64,000 bases of DNA from an uncultured Kineosporiaceae bacterium (GCA_964583765.1 CAZOWW010000003.1:6552-70551), one strand, 5' to 3'; numbered from the stretch's first letter, positions 4,668 through 63,128 are shown. Notes: generated by a model from the sequence alone, not told the origin. Program-made: numbers and translations.

Positions 4668-4708
4668 CCGGGTCTCGTCACCACCGAGCCGGTCTCGTCA
4701 CCACCGGG
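4668..4708. repeat. 2 x 20-bp tandem direct repeat between the DUF503 gene and rbfA
   Basis: GGTCTCGTCACCACCG occurs at 4671-4686 and 4691-4706. In the sense of the operon (minus strand) each unit reads CGGTGGTGACGAGACC and contains TGA. Confidence 0.85.
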
Positions 4709-4763
4709 CCGGGCCGGTTTCCCTGTCTCGGGGCTGGTCCGGCTGCCACGGGGCCGGGAGCGC

Positions 4764-5060
4764 TCAGTCGTCCTCGTCGTCCCAGATGCGGATCCGGGTA
4801 CCGAGCACCTCCGCCTCCGGTCGGTCCGCGACGAGGCGCTCGCAGGACTCCAGCACCCGGCGCAGGAAGGCGGCGTCCCCGGAGACCAGCGCGACGCCGA
4901 TCTCGGACCGGCGGTGCAGGTCCTGGTGACCCGTCTCGGCCGCGCTCACCTCGAACCGGCGCCGGAGTTCGGCCACGATGGGGCGCACCACGGACCGCTT
5001 CTCCTTGAGCGAGTGCACGTCGCCCAGGAGCAGGTCGATGCTCAACGTCCCGATCTGCAC
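4764..5060 (-). CDS. DUF503 (YlxP-like) family protein
   Basis: The 98-aa product MQIGTLSIDLLLGDVHSLKEKRSVVRPIV... sits in the conserved position between infB and rbfA. The start is GTG, preceded by AAGGTGGGGA. Confidence 0.88.
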   Translation of the reverse strand: MQIGTLSIDLLLGDVHSLKEKRSVVRPIVAELRRRFEVSAAETGHQDLHRRSEIGVALVSGDAAFLRRVLESCERLVADRPEAEVLGTRIRIWDDEDD

Positions 5061-5176
5061 GATGTCCCCACCTTGACGACGACCCCGGACCCGGTGCCCA
5101 CGGCACAGCGACGCTCCCGATCCGGGCCCCGACCCAGGCTCGGGTCGAGGCCCGGGTACGGAGCCAGGAGAACGGC

Positions 5177-5205
5177 GGGTGGGGCCGGTCGGACCGGCCC
5201 CACCC
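5177..5205 (-). terminator. hairpin just downstream of the infB stop (attenuator or terminator)
   Basis: GGGTGGGGCCGGTC-G-GACCGGCCCCACCC is a near-perfect palindrome with 14-nt arms, 8 nt after the infB stop codon. Confidence 0.5.
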
Positions 5206-5213
5206 CTGCTCGT

Positions 5214-8200
5214 TCAGGCCCGGGGCTTCTCACGGATCTCGAACGTCTCGATCATGTCGCCCGTTCGGATGTCGTTGTACGAGCCGAGTCCGATACCGCA
5301 CTCGTACCCGTCGCGGACCTCGGTGATGTCGTCCTTGAACCGGCGCAGGGACTCGATCGCCAGACTCTCGGACACCACGACGCCGTCGCGGACCAGCCGT
5401 GCCTTGGCGTTGCGTCGGATCTCGCCCGTACGCACCAGACAGCCCGCGATGTTGCCGAAGCGGCTCGACCGGAACACCTCGCGCACCTCGGCCGAACCGA
5501 GCTGCACCTCCTCGAACTCCGGCTTGAGCATGCCCTTGAGGGCCGCCTCGATCTCCTCGATCGCCTGGTAGATGACCGAGTAGTGCCGGATGTCGATGCC
5601 CTCGCGCTCGGCCAGGTCGCCGACCTTCTCCGCCGGACGGACGTTGAAGCCGACGATGATCGCGCTCGAGGCCACGGCCAGGTTCACGTTGTTCATCGTG
5701 ATGGCACCCACGCCGCGGTCGATGACCTGCAGCTCGACCTCTTCGCCCACGTCGATCTGGAGCAGGGCGTCCTCGAGGGCCTCGACCGAACCGGCCACGT
5801 CGCCCTTGAGGATGAGGTTGAGGGTCTGCACCTTGCCCATTTCGAGGGCCTTGGTGAAGTCCTCCAGGCTGATGCGCTTGCGGCGCTTGGCGAGCACGGC
5901 GGCCCGCTCCACGGCCTCGCGCTTCTCGGCGATCTGCCGCGCGGTCCGGTCGTCCGGTGCCACGAGGAAGGTGTCGCCGGCCCTCGGCACCGAGGTCAGA
6001 CCGAGCACCTGCACCGGGCGGGACGGTTCGGCCTGGTTGACCAGGTCGCCGTTCTCGTCGAGCATCGCCCGCACCCGGCCGTAGGCGGTGCCGGCCACGA
6101 TCGCGTCCCCGACGTGCAGGGTTCCGGACTGCACCAGCACCGTGGCCACGGGGCCGCGGCCGCGGTCGAGGTTGGCCTCGATCGCCACTCCGCGGGCGTC
6201 CTTGTCCGGGTTCGCCGTGAGCTCCAGCGCGGCGTCGGCGGTCAACAGCACCGCCTCCAGGACGGCGTCGATGTTGATCCGCTGCTTGGCCGAGATGTCC
6301 ACGAACATCGTGTCGCCGCCGTACTCCTCGGCGACCAGGTTGTACTCGGTCAGCTGCTGACGGATCTTGGCAGGGTTCGCACCCTCCTTGTCGATCTTGT
6401 TCACTGCCACGACCACCGGCACTCCGGCCGCCTGGGCGTGGTTCAGTGCCTCGATCGTCTGCGGCATCACGCCGTCGTCGGCCGCGACCACCAGCACCGC
6501 GATGTCGGTCACCCGGGCACCACGAGCACGCATGGCGGTGAACGCCTCGTGACCCGGGGTGTCGATGAAGGTGATCGCGCGGTCGATGCCCTCGTGCTCG
6601 AAGTGCACCTGGTAGGCACCGATGTGCTGGGTGATGCCACCGGCCTCGCCGGCCACCACGTTCGCGTGCCGGACCGCGTCCAGCAGCTTGGTCTTGCCGT
6701 GGTCGACGTGACCCATGACGGTGACCACGGGCGGACGGGCCTGGAGGAACTCGACGTCCCCCTCGACCTCCCCGCCCAGGTCGATGTCGAAGGACTCCAG
6801 CAGCTCGCGGTCCTCGTCCTCGGGCGAGACCACCTGGATGTCGTAGCCGAGCTCGGCGCCCAGCAGGCGGAAGGTGTCCTCGTCGAGGGACTGCGTCGCC
6901 GTGGCCATCTCGCCCAGGTGGAAGAGCACCGTGACGAGGCTGGCCGGGTTGGCATTGATCTTGTCGGCGAAGTCCGTCAGCGAGGAACCCCGGCGCAGGC
7001 GGACGACGGTGCGCCCGTCCCCGCGGGGGACCTGCACACCCCCCGCCATGGGGGCCTGCATGTTGTCGAACTCCTGGCGCCGCTGCTTCTTCGACTTCCG
7101 ACCGCGCACCGGGCGGCCACCGGCGCGACCGAACGCGCCCTGCGTACCGCCACGGCCACCGCCGCCCTTGCCGAAGCCGCGACCCGCCGCGGGTGCACCG
7201 GGACCGCCGCCGGGCGCGCCGCCGCCGGGACGACCCGCACCGAATCCGGGACGACCGCCGCCGCCGGGACGACCGGGACCACCCGTGCCACCGCCGGGAC
7301 GACCGGGACCACCCGTGCCGCCACCGGGACGACCGACCGAGGTACGACCGGGCATGAGACCGGGGTTGGGCCGCGGCGGCATCGAGCCGGGGCTCGGACG
7401 GGGACCGCCGGGGCGATCGCCGCCGGCCGGGCGGGCGCCGCCCTGCGGACGGGGCATGCCCTGCGACGGGGCGAACGGGTTGTTGCCCGGACGGGAAGCG
7501 CCACCGCCACCACCGCCGGGACGGGGCATGCCCTGCGACGAGGCGAACGGATTGTTGCCCGGACGGGGAGCACCGCCACCGGGGCGGGGCCCGCGGGACG
7601 CGCCCTGGGGACCGCGACCGCCGCCGGACTCAGCCGGGCGGCCGCCCTGACCCTGCGGACGTCCGCCGGGGCCCGGGCGCGGACCGCCCTGACCACCACG
7701 CGCGGACGGCCCGGCAGGTCGCTGCGAACCGGGGGCCGCGGGCCGCGGCGCGCCGGGACCGGGCCGGGCGCCGGACGGCGCCGACCGGGCGGGGATCGAG
7801 GGAAGACCTGCGGGCGAGGCCGGGCGCGGGCCCGGGCGCTGTCCCGTCCCTGGACGGGTGGACGGCGCCGCCGGGGCGGATGCTGCCGGGGCCGGCGCGG
7901 TCGGGGCCGATGCGGCGGGGGCCACCGGTGCCACGGGGGCAACCGGGATCTCCGGCACGGACGGGGCCGGCGCGGTCGGGGCCGATGCGGCGGGGGCCAC
8001 CGGGGCCACCGGGGCCGACGCCGGGCCGGGACGTGTGCCCGGCCGGGCACTCGGACGGATCCCGGGCTTCGCACCGGGCACCGCACTCGGGCCGGAACGG
8101 GTCGGGGCCGACGGAGCCTGGGCTGTCGGTGCGGAGACCGGCGCCTGGGCGGAGGCTGCGGGAACCGCGGGCGTCGTCGCGGCAGGTCGAGCCGGAGCCG

Positions 8201-8521: not shown

Positions 8522-9106
8522 TCATCGGGTGCTCATCAGCTTCTGACCCGCTTCCGGCTCGGACGGATGGTGCTGTTCCTGTCTGATGGTCGTGCCGTAC
8601 CCCACGGTGGTCCGTGTCTCAACCACCGTGGTCCGTACTTCGGCCACCGTGGTCCGTGCTTCATCCCCCGAGGTCACTGCATCCCGGGAGGCACGCGCCC
8701 TGGTGGGGGGTGCCGTACGAGGCCAGTCCTGCGCGACGGCTCGCAGCCCGGCCAGGTCGAGCGATCCGCTCCGGCGTAGCGCCCGAGGGAACGCCCGGCG
8801 TCGGTCGGCCAGGTCGAGACAACCCAGGTCACGGTGCACCCAGGCCCCTCGCCCCGGAAGCCTGTGCCCCGGGTCGGGGACGACGGACCAGACACCGTCG
8901 ACCTCGGCCAGAACCACTCGCAGCAGGACGGACTGATCATCGCGGCTGCGGCATCCCACGCACGTGCGCTCATGACGAGTGCGGTGCTGACACGTGCTGG
9001 GTTCACACGCGCACTGCCGACACGTACAGGGTTCACACGTACGGGGATAACGAACCACTCGACCGGTCAACCTCAGTCTATCCCCACCCGGAACCGGTGA
9101 ACTCAC
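8522..9106 (-). CDS. YlxR/DUF448 family RNA-binding protein; the start and the C-terminal tail are uncertain
   Basis: The core [19 protein letters not shown]...RGAWVH... is the YlxR signature, and the gene sits in the conserved nusA-ylxR-infB position. The GTG at 9106 forms a GTGA overlap with the nusA stop. The N-terminal and C-terminal parts have poor third-position GC. Confidence 0.75.
8602..8664. repeat. 3 x 21-bp tandem repeat in the ylxR 3' region
   Basis: The units are CCACGGTGGTCCGTGTCTCAA / CCACCGTGGTCCGTACTTCGG / CCACCGTGGTCCGTGCTTCAT. In the ylxR frame they read (A/V)E(V/T)RTTV heptads. Confidence 0.85.
8989..9040. repeat. 2 x 30-bp direct repeat in the ylxR 5' region
   Basis: GACACGTGCTGGGTTCACACG (8989-9009) and GACACGTACAGGGTTCACACG (9019-9039). 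They encode the Cys-rich [18 protein letters not shown] segment if translated. Confidence 0.8.
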
Positions 9107-14280: not shown

Positions 14281-14401
14281 CGCGACGGCGAGGTCAACCG
14301 GCTCGCGACGGCGAGGTCAGCACGGGGAGATCAGACGGCGAGGTCCGGGCGGCAACGCCGAGGACCACCCTCAGAAGAGCCGAGGCCCGCCCTCAGAACA
14401 G
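14281..14401. repeat. composite tandem repeats at the GNAT gene 3' end, upstream of proS
   Basis: GACGGCGAGGTC occurs three times (14284, 14307, 14334). CCGAGG(A/C)CC(A/G)CCCTCAGAA(G/C)AG occurs twice (14358-14379 and 14380-14401); the second copy contains the GNAT stop codon. Confidence 0.85.
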
Positions 14402-15241
14402 CACGGTGGCGTAGCTGCCCACCTCGCGGAAACCCACCCGCCGGTAGGCCCGTACCGCGCGCACGTTGAAGTCGTTGACGTAGAGGGACACCACCGGGGC
14501 GACCTCCCGCCGGGTGATCTCGACGACCGCGGCCATGCCCGGGGCGGCCAGTCCCTCACCGCGGCGGTAGGGGCTCACCCACACGCCCTGCACCTGCACG
14601 GCCTCGGGGGTCACCGAGCCGAGCTCCGCCTTGAACGTGACCTCCGGTCCGCGCGGTCCGGCGTCCATGCGGACGAAGGAGCGGCCGCCGGCCACCAGTC
14701 CCGTGACCTGTCCGTGGTACACGGCCCCGCCGTCCGTGGCGACCGGCGAGTAGCCGACCTCCTCGATGAACATCGCGACACAGGCCGGAATGATCAGGTC
14801 GAGTTCCTCCGTCCTCCCCCGTCGCACCGCGGGGTCCGGGACGACGAGCGGCGGCCCGTCCAGGCTCATCAAGGGCTGGTGGGCCCGCACCTGCCGGGCC
14901 GGACCCCAGTAACGTCCCAACCGGTTCCACAGGGAGAGCACCGCCGGGGCGGGCCCGACCAATGACGAACACTGCCGGCCCAGGTGTCGCGCCCGGGCCG
15001 CGAATGCCTCCAGCGCGTCCTCGGTGGCCTCGACCGGGACGAGGTTGGCCCCCGACCAGCACAGGGACCGCAGAGTGCCCCTCTCGTACCAGCCCCAGAG
15101 CTCTCCACCACGGTGCTGACCACGCGCGACACGACGATGCAGTCGCGCGGCCACGAAGAGGTTCGCCACGAGATCCCGTCGGCAGACCTCGAGCGCCTCT
15201 TCGGTGTCCCGCCGATCGAGGATCCGCAAACCCGAACGCAC
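14393..15241 (-). CDS. GNAT family N-acetyltransferase (DUF4081 N-terminal domain plus acetyltransferase domain)
   Basis: The 282-aa product ends ...VQGVWVSPYRRGEGLAAPGMAAVVEITRREVAPVVSLYVNDFNVRAVRAYRRVGF..., which is the GNAT acetyl-CoA motif. It has the conserved ispG-adjacent position. The start is GTG. Confidence 0.85.
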   Translation of the reverse strand: MRSGLRILDRRDTEEALEVCRRDLVANLFVAARLHRRVARGQHRGGELWGWYERGTLRSLCWSGANLVPVEATEDALEAFAARARHLGRQCSSLVGPAPAVLSLWNRLGRYWGPARQVRAHQPLMSLDGPPLVVPDPAVRRGRTEELDLIIPACVAMFIEEVGYSPVATDGGAVYHGQVTGLVAGGRSFVRMDAGPRGPEVTFKAELGSVTPEAVQVQGVWVSPYRRGEGLAAPGMAAVVEITRREVAPVVSLYVNDFNVRAVRAYRRVGFREVGSYATVLF

Positions 15242-15364
15242 CCCCGCATCCTCGCCGAGGACGGCCCGGAAGCGAAATACACCACTCCGGCGACCGGCTC
15301 CACAGGCCCCCGACCTGGCTCGGAAAGGCCTCCGATCCGGCTCCGACCGGCCGCGGGACTCGGG

Positions 15365-20268: not shown

Positions 20269-22440
20269 ATGCAGGTACTGACCCGATTCGTGCTTCGACA
20301 CCGCTGGTGGGTACTCGCCTTCTGGGTCGTGACCCCGTTCGCAGGCGGGGCGGCGGCCGGGCAGCTCGGCTCCCGGCTCAGCTTCGACTTCTCCCTGCCA
20401 GGACAGCAGGGTTACGAGACCCAGCGGGCCCTGATCGCCTCCTACGGCGCCACCGCGGACGCCGCCTACATCCCGGTGATCACCCTGCCGCCCGGGCAGA
20501 ACGTGCTCTCCCGGCAGGCGGACATCACCGCGACCTTCGACGCCCTGCGGCGGGTGCCCGGGGTGCGCGTCGTCGACTACCCGACCACCCACGACCGCGG
20601 CTTCATCACCGACGACGGGCGCAGCACCTTCGCCGTGGTCTACGCCCCGCAGCCGAAGGGCTTCGTCAATCCGCTCGACCAGCAGGTGACCACCGCCCTC
20701 GACACCGCCCGGGCGCACGGCCTGACCGTGACGCTGACCGGTTACCAGCAACTCTCCGCCGGGAGCCAGAAGTCGGGTGGGCCGAGCGTGCTCGCCGAGA
20801 CCCTGGTCGGCGGGCTGCTCGCCCTGGCCGTGCTCGCGTTCGTCTTCGCGTCGTTCCTGGCGTTCCTCCCCCTGCTCATCGCGATGGTCTCGATCCTCGC
20901 GACCTTCCTGATCGTCCTGGGCCTCACCGCGCTCACGGACGTGAGCTTCGTCGTGCAGTTCCTGATCTCCCTGGTCGGGCTCGGGGTGGCGATCGACTAC
21001 TCGCTCATCGTCGTCTCCCGCTGGCGGGAGGAACGGGCCCACGGCGCGGACAACCACACCGCCGTCGTCACCGCCGCGGACACCGCCGGTCGGGCCGTGG
21101 TCGCGTCGGGCGGCACCGTGGCGATCAGCCTGCTCGCCCTGGTGATGATCCCGGTGCCGTTGCTGCGCAGCATGGGCATCGGCGGGATGCTGATCCCCCT
21201 GGTGAGCGTGGCCGTGGTGCTGACCCTGCTGCCGGTGCTCCTGGCCTCGGTGGGACCGCGGATCGACGTCCCGCGCCTGCGCCAGGAGGGATCGGCGTCC
21301 CGGGCGTGGACCGCCTGGGCCCGGCTGGTGGTCCGGCGCCGCTGGATCGCGGCCGGAGTTGCCCTTCTCGCGCTCGGCACGGCCATGGGGCCGGTCCTGC
21401 ACTCCCAGTTCGGGGTCGCGGACACCCGATCGCTCGCCGCGAACGGACCCGCGGTGGACGCCCTCACCACGCTGCAACGCGGCGGAGTCGGGGACGGAGT
21501 GGTCACCCCGGTCGTCGTCCTCACCCGTGGTGACGCCGGGGAACTGGCCCGCGTGGCGGCCGGGGTTCCCGGGGTGCACCTCGCGACGGCAGCCTCCCCC
21601 GGCGGTCAGGGTCTCACCGCCGTCGACGTGTTCCCCGTCCGCGAGACCGTCGACTCGAACAGCGTCGCCGTGGTCGACCGGGTGCGGGCCGCCGTCCGGC
21701 ACCTTCCGGGGTTCGTCGGGATCACGGGCACCGGCGCGACCATCGTGGACTACCGGCACGCGGTGTACGACAACTTCCCCCTGGTGATCGGCATCATCGC
21801 GCTGATCACGTTCTTCCTGCTCGTGCGGACCTTCCGCTCGGTGCTCCTGCCGGCCAAGGCCGTGGCGCTCAACCTGCTCAGTCTGGGCGCGGTCTTCGGC
21901 GCGGCGACCTGGTTCTGGCAGGAGGGCCACGGTTCGCGGGCGGTCTTCGGGATCGCCCCGACGGGCGCGATGACCTTCTGGATCCCTCCGCTGATCTTCG
22001 CGTTCCTGTTCGGGCTCTCCATGGACTACGAGGTGTTCATCCTCGCCCGGATGCGTGAGGAGTACGACGCGACCGGATCCACCACCCAGGCGGTGGTCCG
22101 CGGCCTGGGACGCACCGGCCGCCTCGTCACCTCCGCCGCGCTCATCCTCTTCTTCGCCTTCGCCGCGCTCGGTGCGGCTCCCGGCACCGACATCAAGGTG
22201 TTCGCGAGCGCGCTCGGTGCGGGCATCCTGCTCGACGCCACCGTGGTGCGGGCCGTCCTCGTCCCCGCGCTGGTCGCGATCCTCGACCGGTGGAACTGGT
22301 GGCTCCCGGCCTGGCTCGCCCGCCTGCTGCGGGTCGCGCCGTCCCCGCTGACCCCGCGTCCGGACGCACCGGAGGACGGCGACCCGCGGTCGGGGCGCCC
22401 GGCGGAGCGGCTTCCCGACCGGCTGCCCGACCCCGTGTGA
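20269..22440 (+). CDS. MMPL family (RND superfamily) transporter
   Basis: The 723-aa product has two hydrophobic modules of about six TM helices each separated by soluble loops, with typical MMPL strings ...LLVRTFRSVLLPAKAVALNLLSLGA... and ...FGLSMDYEVFILARMREEY... Confidence 0.92.
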   Translation: MQVLTRFVLRHRWWVLAFWVVTPFAGGAAAGQLGSRLSFDFSLPGQQGYETQRALIASYGATADAAYIPVITLPPGQNVLSRQADITATFDALRRVPGVRVVDYPTTHDRGFITDDGRSTFAVVYAPQPKGFVNPLDQQVTTALDTARAHGLTVTLTGYQQLSAGSQKSGGPSVLAETLVGGLLALAVLAFVFASFLAFLPLLIAMVSILATFLIVLGLTALTDVSFVVQFLISLVGLGVAIDYSLIVVSRWREERAHGADNHTAVVTAADTAGRAVVASGGTVAISLLALVMIPVPLLRSMGIGGMLIPLVSVAVVLTLLPVLLASVGPRIDVPRLRQEGSASRAWTAWARLVVRRRWIAAGVALLALGTAMGPVLHSQFGVADTRSLAANGPAVDALTTLQRGGVGDGVVTPVVVLTRGDAGELARVAAGVPGVHLATAASPGGQGLTAVDVFPVRETVDSNSVAVVDRVRAAVRHLPGFVGITGTGATIVDYRHAVYDNFPLVIGIIALITFFLLVRTFRSVLLPAKAVALNLLSLGAVFGAATWFWQEGHGSRAVFGIAPTGAMTFWIPPLIFAFLFGLSMDYEVFILARMREEYDATGSTTQAVVRGLGRTGRLVTSAALILFFAFAALGAAPGTDIKVFASALGAGILLDATVVRAVLVPALVAILDRWNWWLPAWLARLLRVAPSPLTPRPDAPEDGDPRSGRPAERLPDRLPDPV

Positions 22441-22441
22441 A

Positions 22442-22489
22442 CCTGATCCCCGATGAGCCTGATCCCCGATGAGCCTGATCCCCGATGAG
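22442..22489 (+). repeat. 3 x 16-bp perfect tandem repeat immediately after the MMPL stop
   Basis: CCTGATCCCCGATGAG occurs three times. It contains six TGA triplets, two in each reading frame (positions 22444, 22454, 22460, 22470, 22476, 22486). Confidence 0.95.
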
Positions 22490-29580: not shown

Positions 29581-29656
29581 CCGTTCCGGTCGATCGTCGC
29601 CACGCGGTGCCCACTGCGCAGCCGTGCCGCTCAGTCCTGCCGAACGGTCCCGCCGC

Positions 29657-43111: not shown

Positions 43112-43177
43112 GTACCTGGGACCTCCGGCGAGCGCCCTGGCACCTCCGGTGAGCCTCTGGGATCAGCGGTGAGCAGG
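43095..43177 (+). repeat. four tandem copies of a 20-21-bp unit bridging the aminotransferase stop and the next gene's start
   Basis: The copies are CCTGGGATCTCCTGTGAGTA, CCTGGGACCTCCGGCGAGCGC, CCTGGCACCTCCGGTGAGCCT and CTGGGATCAGCGGTGAGCAGG. Copy 1 contains the TGA at 43109-43111. Copy 4 contains the GTG start at 43169, at the homologous position. Confidence 0.9.
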
Positions 43178-44632: not shown

Positions 44633-45973
44633 GTGAGCGAGACGCCTGCCCCGACCGATCCGTCCGACGCGTCCCCGGCCCCGAGCGTGCCGTCCGCCTC
44701 CGGCCAGGCTCCGGGGAGACCACCGGCAGCGGGGAAGGCAGCGGCAGGGAAGGCACGGGAGGCCGGGACAGCACCGGCGCCCCCGACGCGGGCACGAGGA
44801 TCGGTCAGCCGACGGGACAAGCGTCTGTTCGCGCTCTGCCTGCTGTCCACGGCGGCCGCCGGCGTGGCCGGTCACCTGCCGCTCGGCTCGATCGTCCCCT
44901 TCCTGATCGCCGCGATCGCCCTGGCCCTGCTCGCGAGCCTCGTCGGCCGGGCGGTGGACGCGTTGGGTGACCGTCTGGGCGCCGGTGCGACGGGCGTCGT
45001 CCAGTCCGCACTGGGCAATCTGCCGGAGCTGTTCGTCTGCCTCTTCGCCCTGCACGACGGGCTGCTGGACGTCGTGCGCGCAGCCCTCGTCGGATCCGTG
45101 CTGGCCAACGTGCTCCTCGTCCTGGGAATGGCGTTCGTGGTGGGCGGCCTCCGGCACGGCACGCAGCGCTTCGCCGCCGAACGGGCACGGCTGATCTCCC
45201 TGATGCTGGTGCTCTCGGTGATGGCACTGCTGCTGCCCTCGCTCGCCCACGTGCTGCACACCCCGGCGGACCATCACGCCTGGGGTCTGTCCATCGTCAC
45301 GTCGGTGCTGCTCCTGGTGCTCTTCGCGCTCTCCCTGCCCGCCGCGATGGCCCGGGAGCCCGGCGCGAAGACCTCGCCGGCCACGGGCGAGACCACCCAC
45401 GGCCCGGCCACGGGCGAGACCTCGGACGGCCCTTCCACGGGCGAGACCTCGGAGGACGGGTCCCCCGCGACGACCGAGGACGGCGACGAGGGCTCCGCCA
45501 CGCGGTCCGACCGGGAATGGCCCCTGGCCCTGGCGCTGACCGTGCTCACCCTGGCCGGGGTGGGTGCCGCACTGGTCTCGGACTGGTTCGTGGCGGCCCT
45601 GCAACCCGCGATCGAGGCCGCCGGCATCTCCCAGGCCTTCGCCGGCCTCGTCGTGGTGGCGATCGCCGGCAATGCGGTCGAGAACGTCGTGGGGATCCAG
45701 CTCGCGGCGCGCAACCAGGCCGACTACGCGCTCTCGGTGATCCTGCAGTCGCCCCTGCAGATCACGCTCGTCGTCGCGCCCGTCCTCGTGCTGGCGGCAC
45801 CGCTCGTCGGCGCGACCTTCACCCTGGTGCTGTCGCCGTTCCTGGTCGCCACCCTGCTCGTGGCCGCGCTGGTGGCGGTCATCGTGGTCGTCGACGGCGA
45901 GTCCACCTGGTTCGAGGGAGCCGCCCTGCTCGTGCTCTACCTGCTCGTGGCGACGGCGTTCTGGTGGGGCTGA
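44633..45973 (+). CDS. calcium/proton exchanger (CaCA family, Cax/ChaA-like)
   Basis: There are two alpha-repeat motifs, ...SALGNLPELFV... and ...IAGNAVENVVG... About 11 TM segments are predicted, with an acidic central loop. The start is GTG. Confidence 0.85.
   Translation: MSETPAPTDPSDASPAPSVPSASGQAPGRPPAAGKAAAGKAREAGTAPAPPTRARGSVSRRDKRLFALCLLSTAAAGVAGHLPLGSIVPFLIAAIALALLASLVGRAVDALGDRLGAGATGVVQSALGNLPELFVCLFALHDGLLDVVRAALVGSVLANVLLVLGMAFVVGGLRHGTQRFAAERARLISLMLVLSVMALLLPSLAHVLHTPADHHAWGLSIVTSVLLLVLFALSLPAAMAREPGAKTSPATGETTHGPATGETSDGPSTGETSEDGSPATTEDGDEGSATRSDREWPLALALTVLTLAGVGAALVSDWFVAALQPAIEAAGISQAFAGLVVVAIAGNAVENVVGIQLAARNQADYALSVILQSPLQITLVVAPVLVLAAPLVGATFTLVLSPFLVATLLVAALVAVIVVVDGESTWFEGAALLVLYLLVATAFWWG
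45377..45457 (+). repeat. 3 x 27-bp in-frame tandem repeat in the exchanger's central loop
   Basis: It encodes PATGETTHG / PATGETSDG / PSTGETSED. Confidence 0.85.
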
Positions 45974-46146
45974 GCACGTAGGCCTGTCGCCCATCTCCGC
46001 GGGCACCGCCCGCAGCCCGTTGCCGCGGCGCCCGGGCGGCCCGACACGGGGAAACCACGGGGAAACCGAGTTGGCCCGGCCCGGGAAATCGGCTATGCAG
46101 GCACTGCGCACTTCATGCCGGGGCCCGCCGCCAGAACGGACGCATC

Positions 46147-47131: not shown

Positions 47132-47246
47132 CCAACCCGCAGGACAGGCTCCGCACCGGCAGCACGCACCCTGAACCCGCAGCACGTACCCGACCCGTAG
47201 CGCGCCCCGAACCCGCAGCACGGGCCCCGAACCCGCAGCACAGGAG
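47132..47246 (+). repeat. about six tandem copies of an 18-21-bp unit filling the ATPase-permease spacer
   Basis: The core (C/G)AACCCGCAG(C/G)AC(A/G) is seen in CCAACCCGCAGGACAGG..., GAACCCGCAGCACGTACC, CGACCCGTAGCGCGCCCC, GAACCCGCAGCACGGGCCCC and GAACCCGCAGCACAGGAG. The last copy supplies the AGGAG Shine-Dalgarno of the permease gene. Confidence 0.85.
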
Positions 47247-49186: not shown

Positions 49187-50506
49187 TCAGGAGATGGTCG
49201 CGGCGAGTTGCCCGCAGGCGCCCGCGATCTCACGCCCCCGCGTGTCCCGCACGGTGACCGCCACGCCGTGTGCGGCGACCCTGGCCACGAAGGTCTCCTG
49301 CACCGCGGGCGCACTCGCCGTCCATCGGGAGCCGGGGGTCGGGTTCAGCGGGATCACGTTCACGTGCACCCAGCCGTCGCCCCGGGCCCGCAGCAGGCGG
49401 CCGAGCTGATCCCCACGCCAGGCCTGGTCGTTCACGTCGCGGATCAGGGCGTACTCGATGCTCACGCGCCGCCCCGTGGCCGTGTGGTAGCGCCGTGCCG
49501 CGTCGAGGGCGGCGGCCACGTTCCACCGCGTGTTCAGCGGCACCAGTTCGTCCCGCGCCGCGTCGTCCGGAGCGTGCAGGGAGAGCGCGAGGGTGACCGG
49601 TAGGCCCTCCCCCGCCAGGCGGTCCATCGCGGGGACCAGTCCCACGGTCGAGACGGTGATCCCGCGCGCGGAGAGTCCGAGGCCGCCCGGCGCCGGGGTG
49701 ATCAGCCGACGCACGGCACCGACCACGGCGCCGTAGTTGGCCAGCGGCTCGCCCATGCCCATGAAGACCACATTGCCGACCCGCGTGGGCCCCTTGCCGC
49801 CGTCGCCCATGCCCCCGGCGGCGGGCCTCCCGGGGCGAGCAGAGGTCCCGGAGCGCGCGGACGTCCCGGTGCGGGCAGAGGCCCCAGTTCCTCGGGCCAG
49901 TTCCCGGGCGGCAGCGACCACCTGCTCGACGATCTCCGCCGTGGACAGGTTGCGGGTCAGCCCCGCCTGCCCGGTCGCGCAGAACGGGCAGCCCATGCCG
50001 CAGCCCGCCTGGCTCGACACGCACACGGTGGCCCGGTCGGGGTAACACATCAACACGCTCTCCGTCAGCGCCCCGTCGAAGAGACGCCAGGCCCACTTCA
50101 CGGTCGTCCCGGCGTCGCACTCCGCCCGGCGCACGCAGGAGGCCAGGCGGGGCAGCAGAGCCTCCACCAGGCGCTCCCGCACCGGGTGCGGCAGGTCGGT
50201 CATCTCGTCCGGGTCGTCCACGAGACGCTGGAAGTAGTGCACCGACAGCTGGCGAGCCCGGAAACCGCGCTCCCCCAGTTCGTCGACGACCACGCGCGCC
50301 CGCTCGGCCTCCCCCAGGTCGGCCAGGTGCCGCGGCGGCCGGCGACGCCGCCCTCCCGCGCCGCCCTCCGGCTCCCCGCCGAGCGGGGTGACCACCGGCT
50401 CGAGAACCCCGGGATCGGCCACGGGGCGCACCGGCTCCGGCCCGCGCGGACCCCGGGAGTCGGCAGGGGCGTCCTGGGCGGCACGGGCGTCAGGGTGGGC
50501 GGACAT
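49187..50506 (-). CDS. rlmN: 23S rRNA (adenine2503-C2)-methyltransferase, radical SAM (RlmN)
   Basis: ...[36 protein letters not shown]...[13 protein letters not shown]...CGQL... includes the CxxxCxxC cluster. The ATG at 50506 is the start. The tracked 1315-aa ORF fuses it to the antisense of xfp. Confidence 0.93.
49835..49888 (-). repeat. 3 x 18-bp in-frame tandem repeat inside rlmN
   Basis: GCGAGCAGAGGTCCCGGA / GCGCGCGGACGTCCCGGT / GCGGGCAGAGGCCCCAGT encodes [18 protein letters not shown]. Confidence 0.85.
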
Positions 50507-50722: not shown

Positions 50723-53239
50723 ATGACCGCCCAGGGGAATCCCGCAGCACGCAACGGATCCGCATCTGCTCTCAGCACCACGACGATCCCGCTCGACGAG
50801 CACCAGGAGTCCCCCGAGCGGCACGTCGCCCACACCCCCTATCTGCGGGGCTCGGACGTCGCCTCGCTCAACGCGTGGTGGCGTGCGGCCAACTACCTGT
50901 CCGTGGGGCAGATCTACCTCATGGACAACCCACTGCTGCGGGAACCGCTCAAGTCGGACCACATCAAGCCCCGGCTGCTCGGCCACTGGGGCACCACCCC
51001 GGGCCTGAACTTCGTGCACGCCCACCTCAACCGCGTCATCATCGCCCGGGACCTGGACATGATCTACGTGTTCGGCCCGGGACACGGCGGTCCCGCCGCG
51101 GTGGCCGGAGCCTGGCTGGACGGGCGCTACTCGGAGATCTACCCGGAGGTCGCCCAGGACGAGCCCGGCATGCGCCGGCTGTTCACGCAGTTCTCGTTCC
51201 CCGGCGGCATCCCCTCGCACGTGGCGCCGGAGACACCGGGGTCCATCCACGAGGGGGGCGAGCTCGGCTACTCGCTCTCGCACGCCTTCGGTGCCGCCTT
51301 CGACAACCCCGACCTGATCGTGGCCTGCGTGGTGGGCGACGGCGAGGCCGAGACCGGCCCCCTGGCCGCCAGCTGGCACTCGACGAAGTTCCTCGACCCG
51401 ATCGGCGACGGCGCGGTGCTGCCGATCCTGCACCTGAACGGCTACAAGATCGCCAGCCCGACGGTGCTCGCGCGCATTCCCGAGCCCGAACTGGTCGCCC
51501 TCCTCACGGGCTGCGGCTGGGATCCGCTCATCGTGTCCGGCAGCGACCCGGAGGGCATGCACCACGCCTTCGCCCGGGCCCTGGACGCCTGCCTCGACCG
51601 CATCCAGGCCATCCAGGGCGACGCCCGGCGGAACGGGGTCCACGCCCGGGTGCGCTGGCCGATGCTCGTCCTGCGCTCCCCCAAGGGCTGGACCGGGCCG
51701 GTGGAGGTGGACGGCCTGCCGAGCGAGAACAGCTGGCGCTCGCACCAGGTGCCCCTCACCGACCCGCGGCACGACCCGGAGCACCTGTCGATCCTCGAGA
51801 GCTGGATGCGCTCCTACCGGCCTCAGGAGCTCTTCGACGACGCCGGCGCGCCCGTGCCGCTCGTGCGATCGCTGTCCCCGGACGGGGAACGCCGGATGAG
51901 CGCCAACCCGCAGACGAACGGCGGCGAGCTGCTGCGGGAGCTGCGGATGCCGGACTTCCGGGAGTTCGCGGTGCCGGTGTCCAGCCCGGGGACCGGCGCC
52001 GTCGAGGCGACCCGGGTGCTGGGGGACTTCCTCGGCGCGGTCGTGCAGGCGAATCTCGACCAGCGGAACTTCCGGATCTTCGCGCCGGACGAGAACAACT
52101 CCAACCGACTCCAGGCCGTGCTGGAGGTCACCGAACGGTCCTGGACGGCCGAACGGGTGCCCGGCGACGAGCACCTGGCCGTGGGCGGGCGGGTGATGGA
52201 GATCCTGTCCGAGACGACCTGTCAGGGCTGGCTGGAGGGCTACCTGCTGACCGGACGGCACGGCCTGTTCAACTGCTACGAGGCCTTCATCCACATCGTC
52301 GACTCGATGGTCAACCAGCACGCGAAGTGGCTCAAGACGATCCGCCGTCTGGCCTGGCGGCGTCCGATCGCGTCCCTGAACTACCTGCTCACCTCGCACG
52401 TGTGGCGCCAGGACCACAACGGGTTCAGCCACCAGGACCCCGGCTTCATCGACCACATGGTCAACAAGAAGGCGGACGTGGTGCGGGTGTACCTGCCGCC
52501 GGACGCGAACACCCTGCTCTCGGTGGCCGACCACTGCCTGCGCAGCCGCAACTACGTCAACGTCGTGGTGGCCGGCAAGCAGCCCGCACTGCAGTACCTG
52601 AGCATGGAGCAGGCGATCGTGCACTGCACCAAGGGCATCGGGATCTGGGAGTGGGCCAGCACGGACGCGGGCAAGGTGCCGGACGTGGTGATGGCCTGCG
52701 CCGGGGACGTACCCACCCAGGAGACCCTGGCCGCCGTGGACATCCTGCTCGGGTTCTTCCCCGACCTGCGCATCCGGGTGGTCAACGTGGTCGACCTCAT
52801 GCGCCTGCAGGACGAACGGGAGCACCCCCACGGCCTGTCCGACACCGCGTTCGACTCCCTGTTCACCCAGGACAAGCCGGTCATCTTCGCGTACCACGGC
52901 TATCCGTGGCTCATCCACCGCCTCACCTACCGGCGGACCAACCACCACAACATCCACGTGCGCGGCTACAAGGAGGAGGGCACCACCACCACGCCCTTCG
53001 ACATGTGCGTGATGAACCAGATCGACCGCTTCCACCTGGCGATGGACGCGATCGACCGGATCCCGCAGCTCGGGGACGACGCGGCGCACCACCGGCAGGC
53101 CCTCGAGGACATCCTGATCCTCCACCGCCAGCACACCCGCACCACCGGCGAGGATCTCCCCCAGGTGCGGACCTGGTCCTGGACGCGCCCGGCCCCGGAA
53201 TCGCCGAGCGCCGGCCCGGCTGAGCCTCGGATCCGCTGA
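50723..53239 (+). CDS. xfp: xylulose-5-phosphate / fructose-6-phosphate phosphoketolase
   Basis: ...[13 protein letters not shown]...[42 protein letters not shown]...[18 protein letters not shown]... is the canonical ThDP phosphoketolase sequence. The ATG at 50723 follows GGAGGG. Confidence 0.95.
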
Positions 53240-53290
53240 GCCCGGATCGGTCGGGATCAGCCCCGGATCGGCTGAGTCCCGGATCGGCCT
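53220..53290 (+). repeat. four tandem copies of a 16-19-bp unit spanning the xfp stop codon
   Basis: The copies are GCTGAGCCTCGGATCC, GCTGAGCCCGGATCGGTC, GGGATCAGCCCCGGATCG and GCTGAGTCCCGGATCGGCC. The xfp TGA (53237-53239) is the TGA of copy 2. Confidence 0.85.
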
Positions 53291-53419: not shown

Positions 53420-53695
53420 TCAGAGTCCGGACTCGGACATCAGGTCAGCCGAGGAGATCATCCGCGCCGTGCCCGTGACCGACTCGGCCAGACGCTCGTC
53501 CGCGATGCGGGCGTCCTCGCGATCCAGGAGCTCCTCGTAGGCCTCGACCAGTGAGGCCGGCACGATCGCGGCAGCACGCACGCCGGATCGTCCCAGGATC
53601 ACGTACGTGATCTCACCGTCGTGGACGGCCCGATTCACCGCCTCGCTGAACTTGTTGCGAGCGTCGGTGACGCTCGACTCCACTGCTTCGCCCAT
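53420..53695 (-). CDS. type II toxin-antitoxin system Phd/YefM family antitoxin (no cognate toxin seen)
   Basis: The 91-aa product ...VTDARNKFSEAVNRAVHDGEITYVILGRSGVRAAAIVPASLVEAYEELLDREDARIADE... has the Phd/YefM N-terminal fold pattern. Confidence 0.8.
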   Translation of the reverse strand: MGEAVESSVTDARNKFSEAVNRAVHDGEITYVILGRSGVRAAAIVPASLVEAYEELLDREDARIADERLAESVTGTARMISSADLMSESGL

Positions 53696-53961
53696 GCCCC
53701 CACGATGCGCCCAACACGCTGGAAACGCGATCTACTTCCTGTCTCACGGCACTCACCCGCACCCTCGTGCCGTTGCGCCCGGCGGTTTGCCCGGAACCGC
53801 GCACGGCACGTGGACCGGCGGGCGCTGGACCGGTTCGGGGATCGTGGACCCGGAACCGAACTCATCATCCCCGGACCGACCCGCGGCCGTTCGCCGTCGC
53901 CAACCTGTCCGCATCCTGGTCGTGGAGCCCGCTCCGCTCCCCCTGGACGCCCGGGTAGAGG

Positions 53962-54003
53962 CGATCGGCCTCGTCCTGCAGTGGTGCAGGACGAGGCCGA
54001 TCG
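53962..54003 (-). terminator. strong hairpin 70 nt downstream of cdsA
   Basis: CGATCGGCCTCGTCCTGCA-GTGG-TGCAGGACGAGGCCGATCG forms a 19-bp perfect stem with a 4-nt loop. Confidence 0.7.
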
Positions 54004-54072
54004 AGGCATCGAGACCATGAATCCGAGCGAGTGCTCAGCGGGTGGGCAGCGCGCCCAGGTGGAGCAGCACGC

Positions 54073-57051
54073 TCAGTGAAGGAGCACGTTCAGCAGGACG
54101 AAGACCACCGGGGCCGAGGGCAACAGGGAGTCGAGGCGGTCCATGACCCCCCCGTGGCCCGGCAGGATGCTGCTCATGTCCTTGATGCCCAGATCCCGCT
54201 TGAGCAGGGACTCGGCCAGGTCACCGAGCGTCGCCGAGACGACGACCGCGGCTCCGATCACCGCCCCCACCCAGAGCTGGCCGTGCAGCCAGTAGTGGAT
54301 GCTCGCCGACCCACTGGCCATGCAGGCCACGGTCGACCCGACGAAGCCTTCCCAGGACTTCTTGGGGCTCACCTTGGGCGCCATCGGGTGCTTGCCGAGC
54401 GTGGCGCCCACGGCGTACCCGCCGATGTCGCTGGAGATGGTCACCAGGACGAAGACGAGCACCCGCACCGGACCTTCGGAGCTCGCCAGCAGCAGGATCG
54501 CGAAGCCTGCGAGGAACGGTACGTAGGCCGCGGTGAACACCCCGGCCGCCACATCGCGGACTGCTCCCCCGATGCCGTCGATGAGCCGCCACAGCAGCAT
54601 GCCGAAGGCCGTCAGGGAGAACGAGACGAGCAGCCCCTCCTCACCCGCCACGTAGGCGGAGATGAGCATGCCGATCGACCCGACCGCGAGCGGGATCACC
54701 GGGATGGTGATGCCCTTGCTGGACACCGCGCCGGCGATCTCCCAGACGCCCACGACGACCGCGAAGCAGGCCAGACCGATGAAGACCTCCTTGCGGAAGG
54801 CAAGGCTGGCGTAGACCGCGCTGCCGAGCAGCAGGCCCACGCCGATGGCCGCGGGCACGTTGCGCCCGCCTCGGCGCCGCGTCGGCACGGGTGTGGGCGC
54901 GGTCACCGGGGGCGTGCGGTCCTTGGCAACCGCCTGCTTCTTGCCCGGCTTCTCCTTGGGCGCCTTGTCCTTCGCGCCGGAGCCGCGTCCGGACCGGCCG
55001 GTCGTCGCCCCGGCGCCGGCGATCGCCTCGTCGAGCGAGGCGAAGACCTCGTCGTCCACCGCCGGCGGCATCCGCAGCAGGTCCGTCTCCTCGAAGGGAT
55101 CCGGAGCCGCCGGTGACAGGCGCGAGGGTGGAGCCGGCGGAACGGGGACCCCTGCACGGGCGGACGCCGGGGCTCCGCGGCCCTGCTTCTGGCCACCCTT
55201 GCGCCCCCGGGCCGACTGGCCGGAGTGCGCGGGCGGGAAGACGTCGTCGACGGAGGCGATCTGGATCGTCTGCTCCCCGGTGTCCGGGGTCGCGCCACGG
55301 GCAAGAGAGCCGGTTCCGGCAGCGGCGGCCGAGGCGGCCCCGGGGACAGCGCCCGTGCTCGTGGCCGCCGTTGCGCCTGTGTGCCGACGCCAGGCGGCGG
55401 TGTCACCGAACTGATCCCCACCCAGCGGCCCGGTGGCCGGCGAACGGTCGGACCCCGCCCGGGGCTGGGACAGCCCGCTCGGAACGGACGGCGCGCTCCC
55501 CGTGGCACCGCCGCGGGCGATGCCGAGACCGCTGTCCAGGTCGATGAATCGATCAGGACCCGACTCCGACGCGGCTGCCGACGGTTCGGACCGCGAGAAC
55601 CGGGCGGCCACGTCGTCCAGGGCCAGCCAGGAGCCCGTGACCGGATCGACCCGTCCGAGCTGGCCGGTGTAGAGCCCCGGCGGCGTGGGGGTCGTTCCCT
55701 GGGCGTCGTACCGCACCGTGCCCGCGTCGTACCGACCAGGATCGTGCTCGACTCCCCGCCGGCTGCTTGGCACCTGGCTCGGTGACGACGGCGGGTACGA
55801 CGGGGTCCCCGGGTAGGACGAGCCGGCACCCCTGGGGTCCTGGTGGCCGGCGGGGTTCTGGTACCCACTGGGGTCTTGGTAACCACCGGGGCTCTGGTAG
55901 CCACCGGGGCTCTGGGACGACGCACCGGGGAGGGAACCGGTGGCGGGGTCCCACGGCGCGGTCGAGTCGCGGTACAGCGAGTCGCGGTACGAGGAGCCGC
56001 TGCCGGACGACGGGCGATAGGGCGCGGGCTCCGGCGCGGGCGGCCGGATCGGGGACGTGTCCAGCGCGTCCGGGTACACCGGGGCCGGAGGGGAGTAGCG
56101 AACCGGTCCTGCCGCCGTCGGCGGGTACTGCGAGTAACCCGCACCCGAGGGAGCGGAACCGCCGTAGCGGGACTCGGCCGCGTAGGGATCGCCGCCGGAC
56201 CGAGGGCCGGGGGCCGCTCCACCGGACTGCCCGTAGCCGCGGTTGACCGGATACGAGCCGGTGAAGGGATCGGCGTCGTACCCGAGACGACCGCCGGAGG
56301 TCATCGGGCCCGAGGAGGGAGGCGGGTAGGAGCCCGTGGCGGGCGACGCCGGCGGGTAGGAGCCGGAGTCCCGAGCGCTCGGCAGGTAGGGCTGTGACGG
56401 AGCGGCCGGGTAGGACTGGGAGGAAGACGGGTAGGGCTGCGACGGAGCGGCCGGGTAGGACTGCGACGGGTAGGAGCCCGTCCGGTAGGGATCCGGAGCA
56501 CCGGAGGTCTCGTACCCTCCGCCGGTCTCCCGGGCCCCGCCGGGCCGCGACTCGGCCCTGCGGCCCGTCTCACCCTGCACCGGCTGGGAGCCGGGGACCT
56601 GGGGCATGGAACCACTGCGCCCGGCGTCGAACAGTCCGGGACCACCCGGCGCCGGTCGCGCCGCGGGCGCCCCGAAAGCGCCGGTGTCCGGGGGCGCTGC
56701 GGGCGCGCCGAAGGCGGACCCTCCGGAGCCACCCCCGCGTCCTCGGGCCCACCAGGGCATCGCTCCCTCGGCCGGGGCATCGCCTCTGCCCGCGCCGGGA
56801 GCACCACCGCCCGGCCCCTGCCCCGAGGCCGGCCAGCTCGACTGCGCGGACCCCTGGGCGGGCGTCGGGTCGGGCCAGGATCCCCGCGACGGCGGGAGGT
56901 CCGAGCTCGGCCGGGAAGGCGTCGGCGACTGCACACCGACGATGTCGGCCCACGACTCGTCCCCGTCCGCGCCTGGCGCGGACGGGGGTTCGGCGCGATC
57001 CGGTCGACGGCGACGCAGTGGCTGTTCGCCCGGCCAGGGTCCTTGATCCAC
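54073..57051 (-). CDS. cdsA: phosphatidate cytidylyltransferase (CdsA) core fused in-frame to a low-complexity N-terminal region of about 660 aa; start uncertain (GTG 57051, or internal ATG 55071 for the core only)
   Basis: The C-terminal 270 aa or so are canonical CdsA (...KKSWEGFVGS..., ...ILPGHGGVMDRLDSLL...). The frame has no stop back to 57051, which is 1 nt after the frr TAA. See the findings for the coding evidence on the extension. Confidence 0.7.
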   Translation of the reverse strand: MDQGPWPGEQPLRRRRPDRAEPPSAPGADGDESWADIVGVQSPTPSRPSSDLPPSRGSWPDPTPAQGSAQSSWPASGQGPGGGAPGAGRGDAPAEGAMPWWARGRGGGSGGSAFGAPAAPPDTGAFGAPAARPAPGGPGLFDAGRSGSMPQVPGSQPVQGETGRRAESRPGGARETGGGYETSGAPDPYRTGSYPSQSYPAAPSQPYPSSSQSYPAAPSQPYLPSARDSGSYPPASPATGSYPPPSSGPMTSGGRLGYDADPFTGSYPVNRGYGQSGGAAPGPRSGGDPYAAESRYGGSAPSGAGYSQYPPTAAGPVRYSPPAPVYPDALDTSPIRPPAPEPAPYRPSSGSGSSYRDSLYRDSTAPWDPATGSLPGASSQSPGGYQSPGGYQDPSGYQNPAGHQDPRGAGSSYPGTPSYPPSSPSQVPSSRRGVEHDPGRYDAGTVRYDAQGTTPTPPGLYTGQLGRVDPVTGSWLALDDVAARFSRSEPSAAASESGPDRFIDLDSGLGIARGGATGSAPSVPSGLSQPRAGSDRSPATGPLGGDQFGDTAAWRRHTGATAATSTGAVPGAASAAAAGTGSLARGATPDTGEQTIQIASVDDVFPPAHSGQSARGRKGGQKQGRGAPASARAGVPVPPAPPSRLSPAAPDPFEETDLLRMPPAVDDEVFASLDEAIAGAGATTGRSGRGSGAKDKAPKEKPGKKQAVAKDRTPPVTAPTPVPTRRRGGRNVPAAIGVGLLLGSAVYASLAFRKEVFIGLACFAVVVGVWEIAGAVSSKGITIPVIPLAVGSIGMLISAYVAGEEGLLVSFSLTAFGMLLWRLIDGIGGAVRDVAAGVFTAAYVPFLAGFAILLLASSEGPVRVLVFVLVTISSDIGGYAVGATLGKHPMAPKVSPKKSWEGFVGSTVACMASGSASIHYWLHGQLWVGAVIGAAVVVSATLGDLAESLLKRDLGIKDMSSILPGHGGVMDRLDSLLPSAPVVFVLLNVLLH

Positions 57052-57052
57052 G

Positions 57053-62046: not shown

Positions 62047-62117
62047 CCCCCTCTGCTGCCGCGAACGATAGTCGACACCCGGACGCGTCCGCCTGATCCG
62101 GCCCGCTCTGCGACCCC

Positions 62118-62244
62118 CCGTCCACGGTCACCGTGCCCCAGGCCCTGCACACAGGCCGCCGGACCGCAGCACCGTCCACAGCTCAGCGAGGCGCAGGCAC
62201 CGTCCTCCGTCCACAGGCCGTCCGACCGCCGGCTCCGTCCACTG
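62118..62244 (+). promoter_or_regulatory. four CCGTCCAC boxes in the LacI / M23 peptidase divergent region
   Basis: CCGTCCACGG (62118-62127), CCGTCCACAG (62172-62181), CCGTCCACAG (62217-62226) and CCGTCCACTG (62235-62244), all in the same orientation, lie 50-175 nt upstream of the M23 peptidase start. Confidence 0.35.
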
Positions 62245-62293
62245 CCCGAGATGACGACGCCCCCGGAACCGACGCGGCGAGAAGGCTGCGGCC

Positions 62294-63028
62294 ATGCCCG
62301 ACCGCACCGACCCAAGGCTGCCTGCCGGCCTGCTCGCACTGACCTGCGCCCTCGTGGCCCTCGTGGTCGCCGGTGGCCGCGTGATCGCTGTCGGCGATCC
62401 GTTCCCTGGCCGCGGCCAGGGCTCCAAGGTCCATTCGGCACCCTCCGGGGCAGAGCGGGTGACGGCCGGAAGCCAGGCGGCCCAGCTCCTGCCGGATGCC
62501 CTGCCCGCAGCCATCCAGACGTCCCCGGCCGGAGCGTCGGACCTCGCCTCCCCGCAATCGCCGGCTCCGAGTACCGGGACCGCAGGCCCAGCCCCCGGGA
62601 GCTCCCCCGGAGGCTGGGCCTGGCCGTTGGTCCCCGTCCCCGCCGTGTTGCGGGAGTTCATCACCGGTCCGGAGCCCTGGTCACCCGGGCATCGAGGAGT
62701 CGATCTCGCGGCCGTCCCTGGCCGGCCGGTGCGGGCGGCGTCGGCGGGAGTCGTCAGATTCGCCGGCGCGGTCGCCGGCCACCACGTGCTGGTGCTCGCC
62801 CACGACGGCGGGATCCTGACGAGCTACGAACCGGTACGGTCCGAGCTCCCTGTGGGCACCAGCGTTCCGGCGGGAGCGGTCATCGGGGTGTTGGACGGCA
62901 GCTGGCCCACGCACTGCGCCGATCGTTGCCTGCACTGGGGCGCCCGTCTCGACGGACGTTACCTGGACCCGTTGACGCTGCTGGGTCTGCACCCGCCTGC
63001 CCCCGTGCTCCTGCCCCTCGGGGGTTGA
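62294..63028 (+). CDS. M23 family metallopeptidase (secreted peptidoglycan endopeptidase-like)
   Basis: There is an N-terminal signal/TM segment LPAGLLALTCALVALVVAG. The C-terminal ...WSPGHRGVDLAAVPGRPVRAASAGVVRFAG...HVLVLAH... is the HxxxD / HxH LytM-type motif. Confidence 0.88.
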   Translation: MPDRTDPRLPAGLLALTCALVALVVAGGRVIAVGDPFPGRGQGSKVHSAPSGAERVTAGSQAAQLLPDALPAAIQTSPAGASDLASPQSPAPSTGTAGPAPGSSPGGWAWPLVPVPAVLREFITGPEPWSPGHRGVDLAAVPGRPVRAASAGVVRFAGAVAGHHVLVLAHDGGILTSYEPVRSELPVGTSVPAGAVIGVLDGSWPTHCADRCLHWGARLDGRYLDPLTLLGLHPPAPVLLPLGG

Positions 63029-63083
63029 GGGTGCTCGGGGACCGGTTCTGAGCGACCCAGAGTCGGCCACCGATGCCGGGGCG

Positions 63084-63128
63084 ACCCCGGGAACCCCGGG
63101 AACCCCGGGAAACCACAGGAACCCGAGA
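63084..63128 (+). repeat. 9-bp tandem repeat (three perfect and about two degenerate copies) downstream of the M23 gene
   Basis: ACCCCGGGA occurs three times (63084-63110), followed by AACCACAGGA and ACCCGAGA. Confidence 0.8.

Follow-up and report, generated by a model that had tools for sequence, protein, structure and literature searches.

Short tandem duplications across and behind stop codons in an uncultured Kineosporiaceae bacterium: probable slippage products sifted by purifying selection

The stretch of DNA analyzed here, referred to as the window, comprises 64,000 nucleotides (C3:6552-70551) of the 5.91-Mb draft genome of an uncultured actinomycete, a Kineosporiaceae bacterium, which is assembled in 281 contigs and has a GC content of 71%; the short tandem arrays found between and within its genes are the subject of this study. 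Pfam searches recognized conserved actinobacterial content in the window (nusA-infB-rbfA-truB, proS, ispG-dxr and rlmN-cdsA-frr-pyrH-tsf-rpsB) as well as accessory aldehyde dehydrogenase, transporter and polyamine-type genes. A genome scan identified uncultured Actinomycetota metagenome-assembled genomes as closest relatives, with 73-74% protein identity, and the cultured genera Kitasatospora, Jiangella and Sphaerisporangium at about 55% identity. Genes were predicted with a caller written for this analysis, a 3-periodic fifth-order Markov model, the frames and stops of which were verified by Pfam for 46 genes of the window. Arrays were detected with Tandem Repeats Finder (TRF) over the whole genome, keeping non-redundant arrays with a score of at least 50 and a period of at least 7, and were compared to shuffled controls in which codons were permuted within genes and bases within spacers. 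A preliminary description of the window had listed 12 arrays as sitting flush against stop and start codons, with units that often carry TGA, and TRF recovered all 12 of them.

Six of the 12 arrays contain, or start with, a stop codon at a Pfam-checked gene end, namely those of the GNAT, MMPL, permease, aldehyde dehydrogenase, aminotransferase and phosphoketolase genes. The GNAT-proS spacer holds two arrays on the minus strand, one of 14 bp in 2.7 copies (14307-14342) and one of 22 bp in 2.1 copies (14357-14402), the latter with the GNAT stop (14393-14395) inside its first copy. On the plus strand, the first base of the MMPL 3' array (22438-22489; 16 bp in 3.2 copies with 97% matches) is that of the MMPL stop TGA (22438-22440), and likewise the 3' duplication of the amino-acid permease gene (29485-29532; 24 bp in 2.0 copies) begins with the permease stop TGA (29485-29487). 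A weak array (29625-29668, minus strand; 13 bp in 3.4 copies with 70% matches) runs across the aldehyde dehydrogenase stop (29657-29659). Four degenerate copies of about 20-21 bp (43095-43177, plus strand; TRF core 43115-43154 with 21 bp in 1.9 copies) fill the whole aminotransferase-DAO spacer, so that this array holds not only the aminotransferase stop (43109-43111, copy 1) but also the GTG start of the DAO gene (43169, copy 4). Finally, 5.8 copies of a 16-bp unit (53192-53288, plus strand) lie across the phosphoketolase stop (53237-53239). A further array (47151-47241, plus strand; 20 bp in 4.8 copies) takes up the greater part of the spacer that separates the ABC ATPase gene from the ABC-2 permease gene and abuts the permease start (47246 or 47252), ending just 5' of it.

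The description of the arrays as flush was thus appropriate for six at stops and one at a start; the remaining five (beginning at 4671, 31281, 37327, 46045 and 63084) are located 50-125 nt away from any stop or start. The DUF503-rbfA duplication (4671-4712, minus strand; 20 bp in 2.1 copies) had been assigned to a gene boundary that proved to be mis-framed: Pfam-checked ends place DUF503 at 4764-5060 and rbfA at 4052 to about 4579, both on the minus strand, and the duplication therefore lies mid-spacer, following the DUF503 stop (4764-4766) by 51 nt and preceding the rbfA start (about 4579) by about 92 nt. Another mid-spacer array (31281-31393; 19 bp in 5.9 copies) is found 103 nt past the stop of a DAO oxidoreductase gene (31496) and about 107 nt short of the start (about 31174) of the aldehyde dehydrogenase gene. 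Two adjoining arrays at 37327-37426 (21 bp in 3.0 copies at 37327-37388 and 16 bp in 2.5 copies at 37387-37426) lie in a 415-nt spacer upstream of a solute-binding-protein operon, with the nearest stop 125 nt away. A perfect duplication of 11 bp in 2.1 copies (46045-46067) lies between the exchanger and ABC ATPase genes, 72 nt from the stop of the former and 80 nt from the start of the latter, and the convergent spacer between an M23 peptidase gene and a sigma factor gene carries two arrays (63084-63202; 9/19 bp in 4.4 copies and 27 bp in 2.0 copies), the first of which (63084-63124) begins 56 nt past the peptidase stop. An array of the same kind that had not been listed (15294-15352; 22 bp in 2.7 copies) has the GNAT start on one side and the ispG stop on the other. 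The in-frame repeats reported within coding regions were present as well, all with periods that are multiples of three (3n): in the N-terminal part of infB (7204-8167, minus strand; periods of 15-72 bp), the tail of the ylxR open reading frame (ORF; 8602-8675, minus strand; 21 bp in 3.5 copies), the Na/Ca exchanger gene (45377-45453, plus strand; 27 bp in 2.9 copies) and rlmN (49828-49885, minus strand; 18 bp in 3.2 copies).

Genome-wide, TRF detected 2217 arrays. The expectation that arrays are enriched over shuffled intergenic sequence was borne out: 838 intergenic arrays were observed as compared to about 31 in shuffled sequence, and 200 straddled gene ends as compared to about 2. Within coding sequence, arrays with non-3n periods remained at chance level (70 observed, 60 shuffled), whereas those with 3n periods were 6.5-fold more frequent than in the control (1109 observed, 170 shuffled). 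Between genes, non-3n periods exceeded chance about 20-fold, and they make up two thirds of the stop-proximal coverage, which is the neutral expectation. Array formation is therefore real, pervasive and, inside genes, filtered by reading frame.

The position of the arrays relative to gene ends was determined next to their abundance. Arrays cover 1.3-2% of the sequence within genes; coverage climbs across the last 15 nt of a gene, reaches 11.5% between +16 and +60 past the stop and amounts to 5-7% farther away; toward starts it declines from about 7%, and the 5 nt immediately before the start are covered to 1.75%. Convergent spacers of 51-200 bp are covered to 12-13.6%, roughly evenly along their length, whereas short divergent spacers are covered to 1-3% only, and co-directional spacers show a gradient from 10% on the stop side to 2.5% on the start side. 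Between -20 and +40 around the stop the 5' edges of the arrays have a flat rate (2.0-2.6 per 1000 sites), which declines inside the gene at more than about one unit length from the stop; the genome-wide edge profile revealed no spike of 5' edges at the stop codon itself. Stop-containing arrays (n = 169) affect about 5% of confidently called genes. No more than one unit extends into the gene in 153 of these arrays, which means that they have the real stop in the first copy. Arrays containing a called start were fewer (n = 49), and only 13 of these have a non-3n period. This pattern of edges and coverage around stops is what a uniform duplication process yields, since a duplication that includes the stop leaves the protein untouched.

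Of the units of arrays that include a real stop, 84-86% carry TGA, compared to a background of about 15%, in a genome in which 87% of stops are TGA. The statement that units often carry TGA is accurate for these arrays, but not for the others, which are near background: in the remaining 3' arrays TGA was found in 12-27% of units and the reverse-strand equivalent TCA in 9-20%, and in the arrays of divergent spacers, which served as control, the values were 18% and 17%. Hence, across the genome, arrays without a real stop showed no sense-strand excess of TGA over TCA, and the proposed over-representation relative to the reverse strand did not hold outside stop copies. The TGAs in the units are copied stops, and the non-3n period of the copied stop accounts for their spread over all three frames. 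TGAs in register with the real stop were slightly in excess only within 20 nt (7 as compared to about 2 expected), which fits degenerate first copies. A typical context, CTGAGC or GGTGAGC, had also been suggested. The base after TGA is G in 37% of the genes that have a stop-containing array and in 36% of those that have none, revealing no special context, and a TGAG or CTGAGC hotspot motif was ruled out by these nearly equal shares. In sum, a selection filter operates on the arrays, and a stop-specific or TGA-specific signal is absent.

The units have a median period of 20 bp (interquartile range 17-24) and a median copy number of 2.4. An all-against-all comparison of the non-coding units found 957 of 1003 to be singletons and the largest cluster to have three members, and no array matched an Rfam family. 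The sole Rfam match in the window was an Actino-pnp RNA leader (RF01688, 57.7 bits) at 1325-1397 on the minus strand, upstream of pnp. Among the non-coding arrays, 10% are perfect and 18% show at least 95% identity between copies, with a median identity of 85%; the presence of perfect arrays beside a median of 85% indicates continuous birth and decay. Perfect two-copy duplications possess on average 4.6 nt of extra flanking homology as compared to about 0.8 nt by chance, and 42% of them have at least 4 nt. This excess points to slipped-strand mispairing. With respect to mismatch repair, no match to MutS (PF00488) was found genome-wide and one NucS gene (PF01939) was located at C97:8499-8861, which is the usual situation in Actinobacteria; moreover, loops of 10-40 nt are not classical substrates of mismatch repair.

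Comparison with relatives allowed the direction of change to be read at three junctions. In an alignment of the GNAT/proS region, the GNAT gene of four genera terminates in an identical TCAGAACAG / CTGTTCTGA, but the second 22-bp copy is missing there, and the spacer, which is 221 bp long here, measures 51-195 bp in relatives (51-100 bp in most). At the aminotransferase/DAO junction one relative (G008) displays a single GTGA stop/start overlap, where four copies and a 57-nt spacer are found here. The phosphoketolases of relatives end in ...WTR*, whereas the ORF in this genome reads through the ancestral stop position and runs 16 codons into the array at 53192-53288 until the TGA of the third unit (53237-53239) ends it, leaving a C-terminal tail of 16 codons encoded by the array; another relative (G012) has a repeat of its own, different in sequence, after its phosphoketolase stop. 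The extra copies at all three junctions are absent from the orthologous sites and are thus derived. The syntenic 65 kb in two other genera contain about 6-10 non-3n arrays at other positions, as compared to 12 here, and on this repeat density, which is based on TRF of about 130 kb, the duplication process is family-wide, with this genome at the upper end. The notion of a mutational signature peculiar to this replicon can accordingly be kept as far as the mutational signature is concerned but not as to the replicon, since arrays of a comparable kind occur at different loci in the genomes of relatives from other genera. Furthermore, an independently assembled metagenome contig (L049) of 2899 bp that takes in two arrays, one of them that at 15294-15352, is 100% identical, which shows that the arrays are not assembly artefacts; the other matches of the metagenome scan were relatives with no more than 74% identity. 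As a separate observation, a repeat of lower GC content, 24 bp in 2.5 copies (ATCGACGCGATCGATCAAGTTCGAC), occupies a syntenic place in two genera (L013 14885-14944 in G007 and L029 14567-14626 in G005). Unlike the other arrays it is conserved across genera, and it was not found in the window when up to 3 mismatches were allowed.

Following this, we consider it very probable that the arrays are young, locus-specific slippage duplications that have been sifted by purifying selection and persist as harmless survivors. Replication slippage, i.e., slipped-strand mispairing at short homologies, would make short tandem duplications all over the genome, and we infer this generating step from the excess flanking homology together with general knowledge of the process. 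Purifying selection would subsequently sift the duplications: within genes only units with a length that is a multiple of three would survive; just upstream of starts few would be kept, as they would disturb promoters and ribosome-binding sites; and in 3' non-coding DNA nearly all would be kept. A duplication spanning a stop would be as harmless as one in the spacer, with the first copy ending the protein unchanged and the later TGA copies remaining untranslated. That arrays look flush on stops and that their units carry TGA would then be due to the tolerance of stop-spanning duplications.

Several observations weigh against this explanation. Among the stop-containing arrays, a period of 2 mod 3 is more frequent than one of 1 mod 3 (68 and 40 arrays, respectively; uncorrected p of about 0.009), while purely intergenic arrays show no such excess (212 and 201, respectively). 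Pure neutrality does not predict this modest excess. Translational coupling as its cause was not supported: the excess is found at stops following C or T, not at those following A or G. Moreover, coverage within 40 nt past stops is about twice that farther out. In our view, constraint close to the following start, together with genes left uncalled in long spacers, explains the difference; a mutational hotspot at gene 3' ends could account for it instead. Individual arrays may also have acquired a function, and those at 37327-37426 could, as a candidate example, have been co-opted as protein-binding repeats. In addition, called starts are approximate, being truncated in some genes, and the called coding density is low (about 80%, with long spacers genome-wide that reflect partly truncated starts and partly spacers expanded by repeats); both render the start-side figures less certain than the stop-side ones, and our conclusions therefore lean on stops.

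Alternative explanations attribute a function to the arrays. If they had been selected as back-up stop cassettes, ribosomes reading through the gene end or shifting frame would meet a TGA whichever frame they were in, and the non-3n arrays spanning stops, e.g., those at 22438-22489 and 53192-53288, do offer TGA in all frames, the latter halting at its third unit the phosphoketolase ORF that had entered it. However, TGA is no more frequent than reverse-strand TCA in arrays without a real stop, which largely refutes this proposal; array edges do not peak at stops, relatives share the same GNAT and aminotransferase C-termini without extra copies, and 3n periods account for one third of stop-proximal arrays, exactly the neutral share. 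We regard back-up stops as highly improbable. Little more can be said for hypervariable loci of the variable number tandem repeat (VNTR) or contingency type, the copy number of which would tune expression or C-terminal tails. The share of nearly identical (at least 95%) and perfect copies suggests a recent and probably ongoing process, an array encodes the phosphoketolase tail, and arrays differ among genera, but the metagenome contig L049 was identical throughout its two arrays, most arrays consist of 2-3 copies at a median identity of 85% rather than of long unstable tracts, and promoters are not enriched for them; candidate VNTR loci are therefore very unlikely as the general explanation. 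A dispersed mobile repeat family targeting gene junctions, of the type of MIRUs (mycobacterial interspersed repetitive units) or repetitive extragenic palindromic (REP) elements, has in its favor only a superficial resemblance to MIRUs. It is refuted by the fact that 957 of 1003 units lack a counterpart of similar sequence anywhere else in the genome, and the units copy local sequence, including the last codons of the local gene, and match nothing in Rfam, which leaves this idea close to untenable. The MIRU analogy of the preliminary description fails accordingly with regard to unit size and a dispersed family, although its concession that each locus has its own unit was correct.

A role of the arrays as spacing or re-initiation elements in operons, with MIRU-like small ORFs coupling upstream to downstream translation, deserves separate treatment, as a few junctions do look like this. 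In the window, GTGA at 43108, 43149 and 43169 forms an unbroken chain from the aminotransferase stop via a 14-codon and a 7-codon ORF to the DAO start. In the relative G007, one of the arrays at other positions consists of 4.3 copies, 98% identical, of a 17-bp unit that holds the ATGA junction of rbfA and truB (L016 10776-10848), which creates three identical MTVSSA* mini-ORFs linked by successive ATGA overlaps before the truB start. A targeted scan of this genome added four further duplications of such junctions with a non-3n period, each of them with a spacing of 2 mod 3, and hence all six such GTGA/ATGA duplications, counting those of the window and of G007, keep the chain in frame. This concerns about 7 of about 1000 arrays, however, and a general role is refuted by position, as arrays occur most often in convergent spacers, which have no downstream gene, and are depleted over the 30 nt that precede a start; nor is the 2 mod 3 excess concentrated at stops after A or G, which are those able to overlap a start. 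It is preferable to regard the chain as what survives once a junction has been duplicated, not as what the arrays are for, and re-initiation spacers are on the whole very unlikely, even though a handful of GTGA/ATGA junctions do keep a mini-ORF chain. A narrower proposal is that duplicated ATGA or GTGA overlaps survive only in lengths that keep the mini-ORF chain in frame (2 mod 3, or 0 mod 3 as an in-frame N-terminal repeat), by which ribosomes would be handed to the downstream gene. With six of six cases and the weak 2 mod 3 excess, such a junction frame filter is a weak lead rather than a finding, and we put it forward as a doubtful though conceivable refinement. If it were true, a frame filter would act on non-coding spacers, providing a simple comparative test for translational coupling as well as a de novo route to, and thereby a possible origin of, MIRU-like small ORFs that overlap both neighbors.

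Taken as slippage duplications, the arrays fit a known class, that of slippage-derived close direct repeats or minisatellites: they are head-to-tail local copies in excess of what composition yields, with homology at their borders, a distribution shaped by selection and copies that are derived. Achaz and co-workers reportedly proposed in 2002 a model in which bacterial repeats arise mainly as tandem duplications. The units of MIRUs, which constitute one dispersed family, measure 40-100 bp, whereas those described here show a median length of 20 bp, and each locus has its own unit, copied from the junction at which it lies. MIRUs are regarded as mobile elements that insert at start codons, with small ORFs that overlap the flanking stop and start (PMC12548453). 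The arrays share with them the intergenic location and, in few cases (43108-43172 and rbfA/truB of G007), small ORFs overlapping by 4 nt; this architecture is found at 43108-43172 and about five other junctions, while the bulk of the arrays is built otherwise and is commonest in convergent spacers. Bacterial minisatellites or VNTRs, as used in multiple-locus VNTR analysis (MLVA) typing, are likewise tandem arrays made by slippage, with units of about 10-100 bp and often intergenic, but most of the arrays here have no more than 2-3 copies; VNTR loci are defined by polymorphism between strains. In marine Beggiatoaceae, one fixed TAACTGA heptamer occurs genome-wide and a regulatory role has been proposed for it (PMC4679880); these are also abundant intergenic direct repeats with stop triplets, yet the arrays described here share no motif between loci. 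The closest correspondence is with the close direct repeats that are over-represented in intergenic DNA across prokaryotes, with the top scores for clustered direct repeats in Actinobacteria and Cyanobacteria (Huang and Mrazek, 2014; PMC4060949). Over-representation between rather than within genes, locus-specific units, flanking microhomology, high levels in Actinobacteria and the absence of any required function are common to both. While that survey did not resolve position relative to stops and starts, stop-spanning duplications emerge here as a distinct tolerated class affecting about 5% of genes.

Apart from the arrays, further features of the window may be mentioned. In cdsA (54073-57051, minus strand), the CTP_transf_1 domain takes up only residues 736-989 of a 992-codon frame, for about 895 codons of which the caller gives support; in-frame repeats at 55828-55915 and 56385-56469 lie in the long N-terminal part, which as an extension of CdsA would be unusual in its length. 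A gene for a Phd/YefM-type antitoxin (53420-53695, minus strand) has no recognized toxin partner adjoining it, and the ORF beside it (53621-54079, plus strand) had no Pfam match.

Overall, the arrays are ordinary repeats of a known kind, and repeats hugging stops in high-GC actinomycetes need no function, which calls for caution in annotation, all the more as such repeats mislead ORF-based reading of gene ends, as was the case for rbfA and DUF503. They nevertheless offer a natural experiment on selection, in which one mutational process is erased in genes unless its products are 3n, suppressed before starts and tolerated after and across stops. For the organism, the consequences are threefold: spacers are lengthened, as between GNAT and proS with 221 bp as compared to 51-100 bp in most relatives; a C-terminal tail is occasionally rewritten, as in the phosphoketolase; and translationally coupled pairs such as aminotransferase/DAO can be pulled apart.

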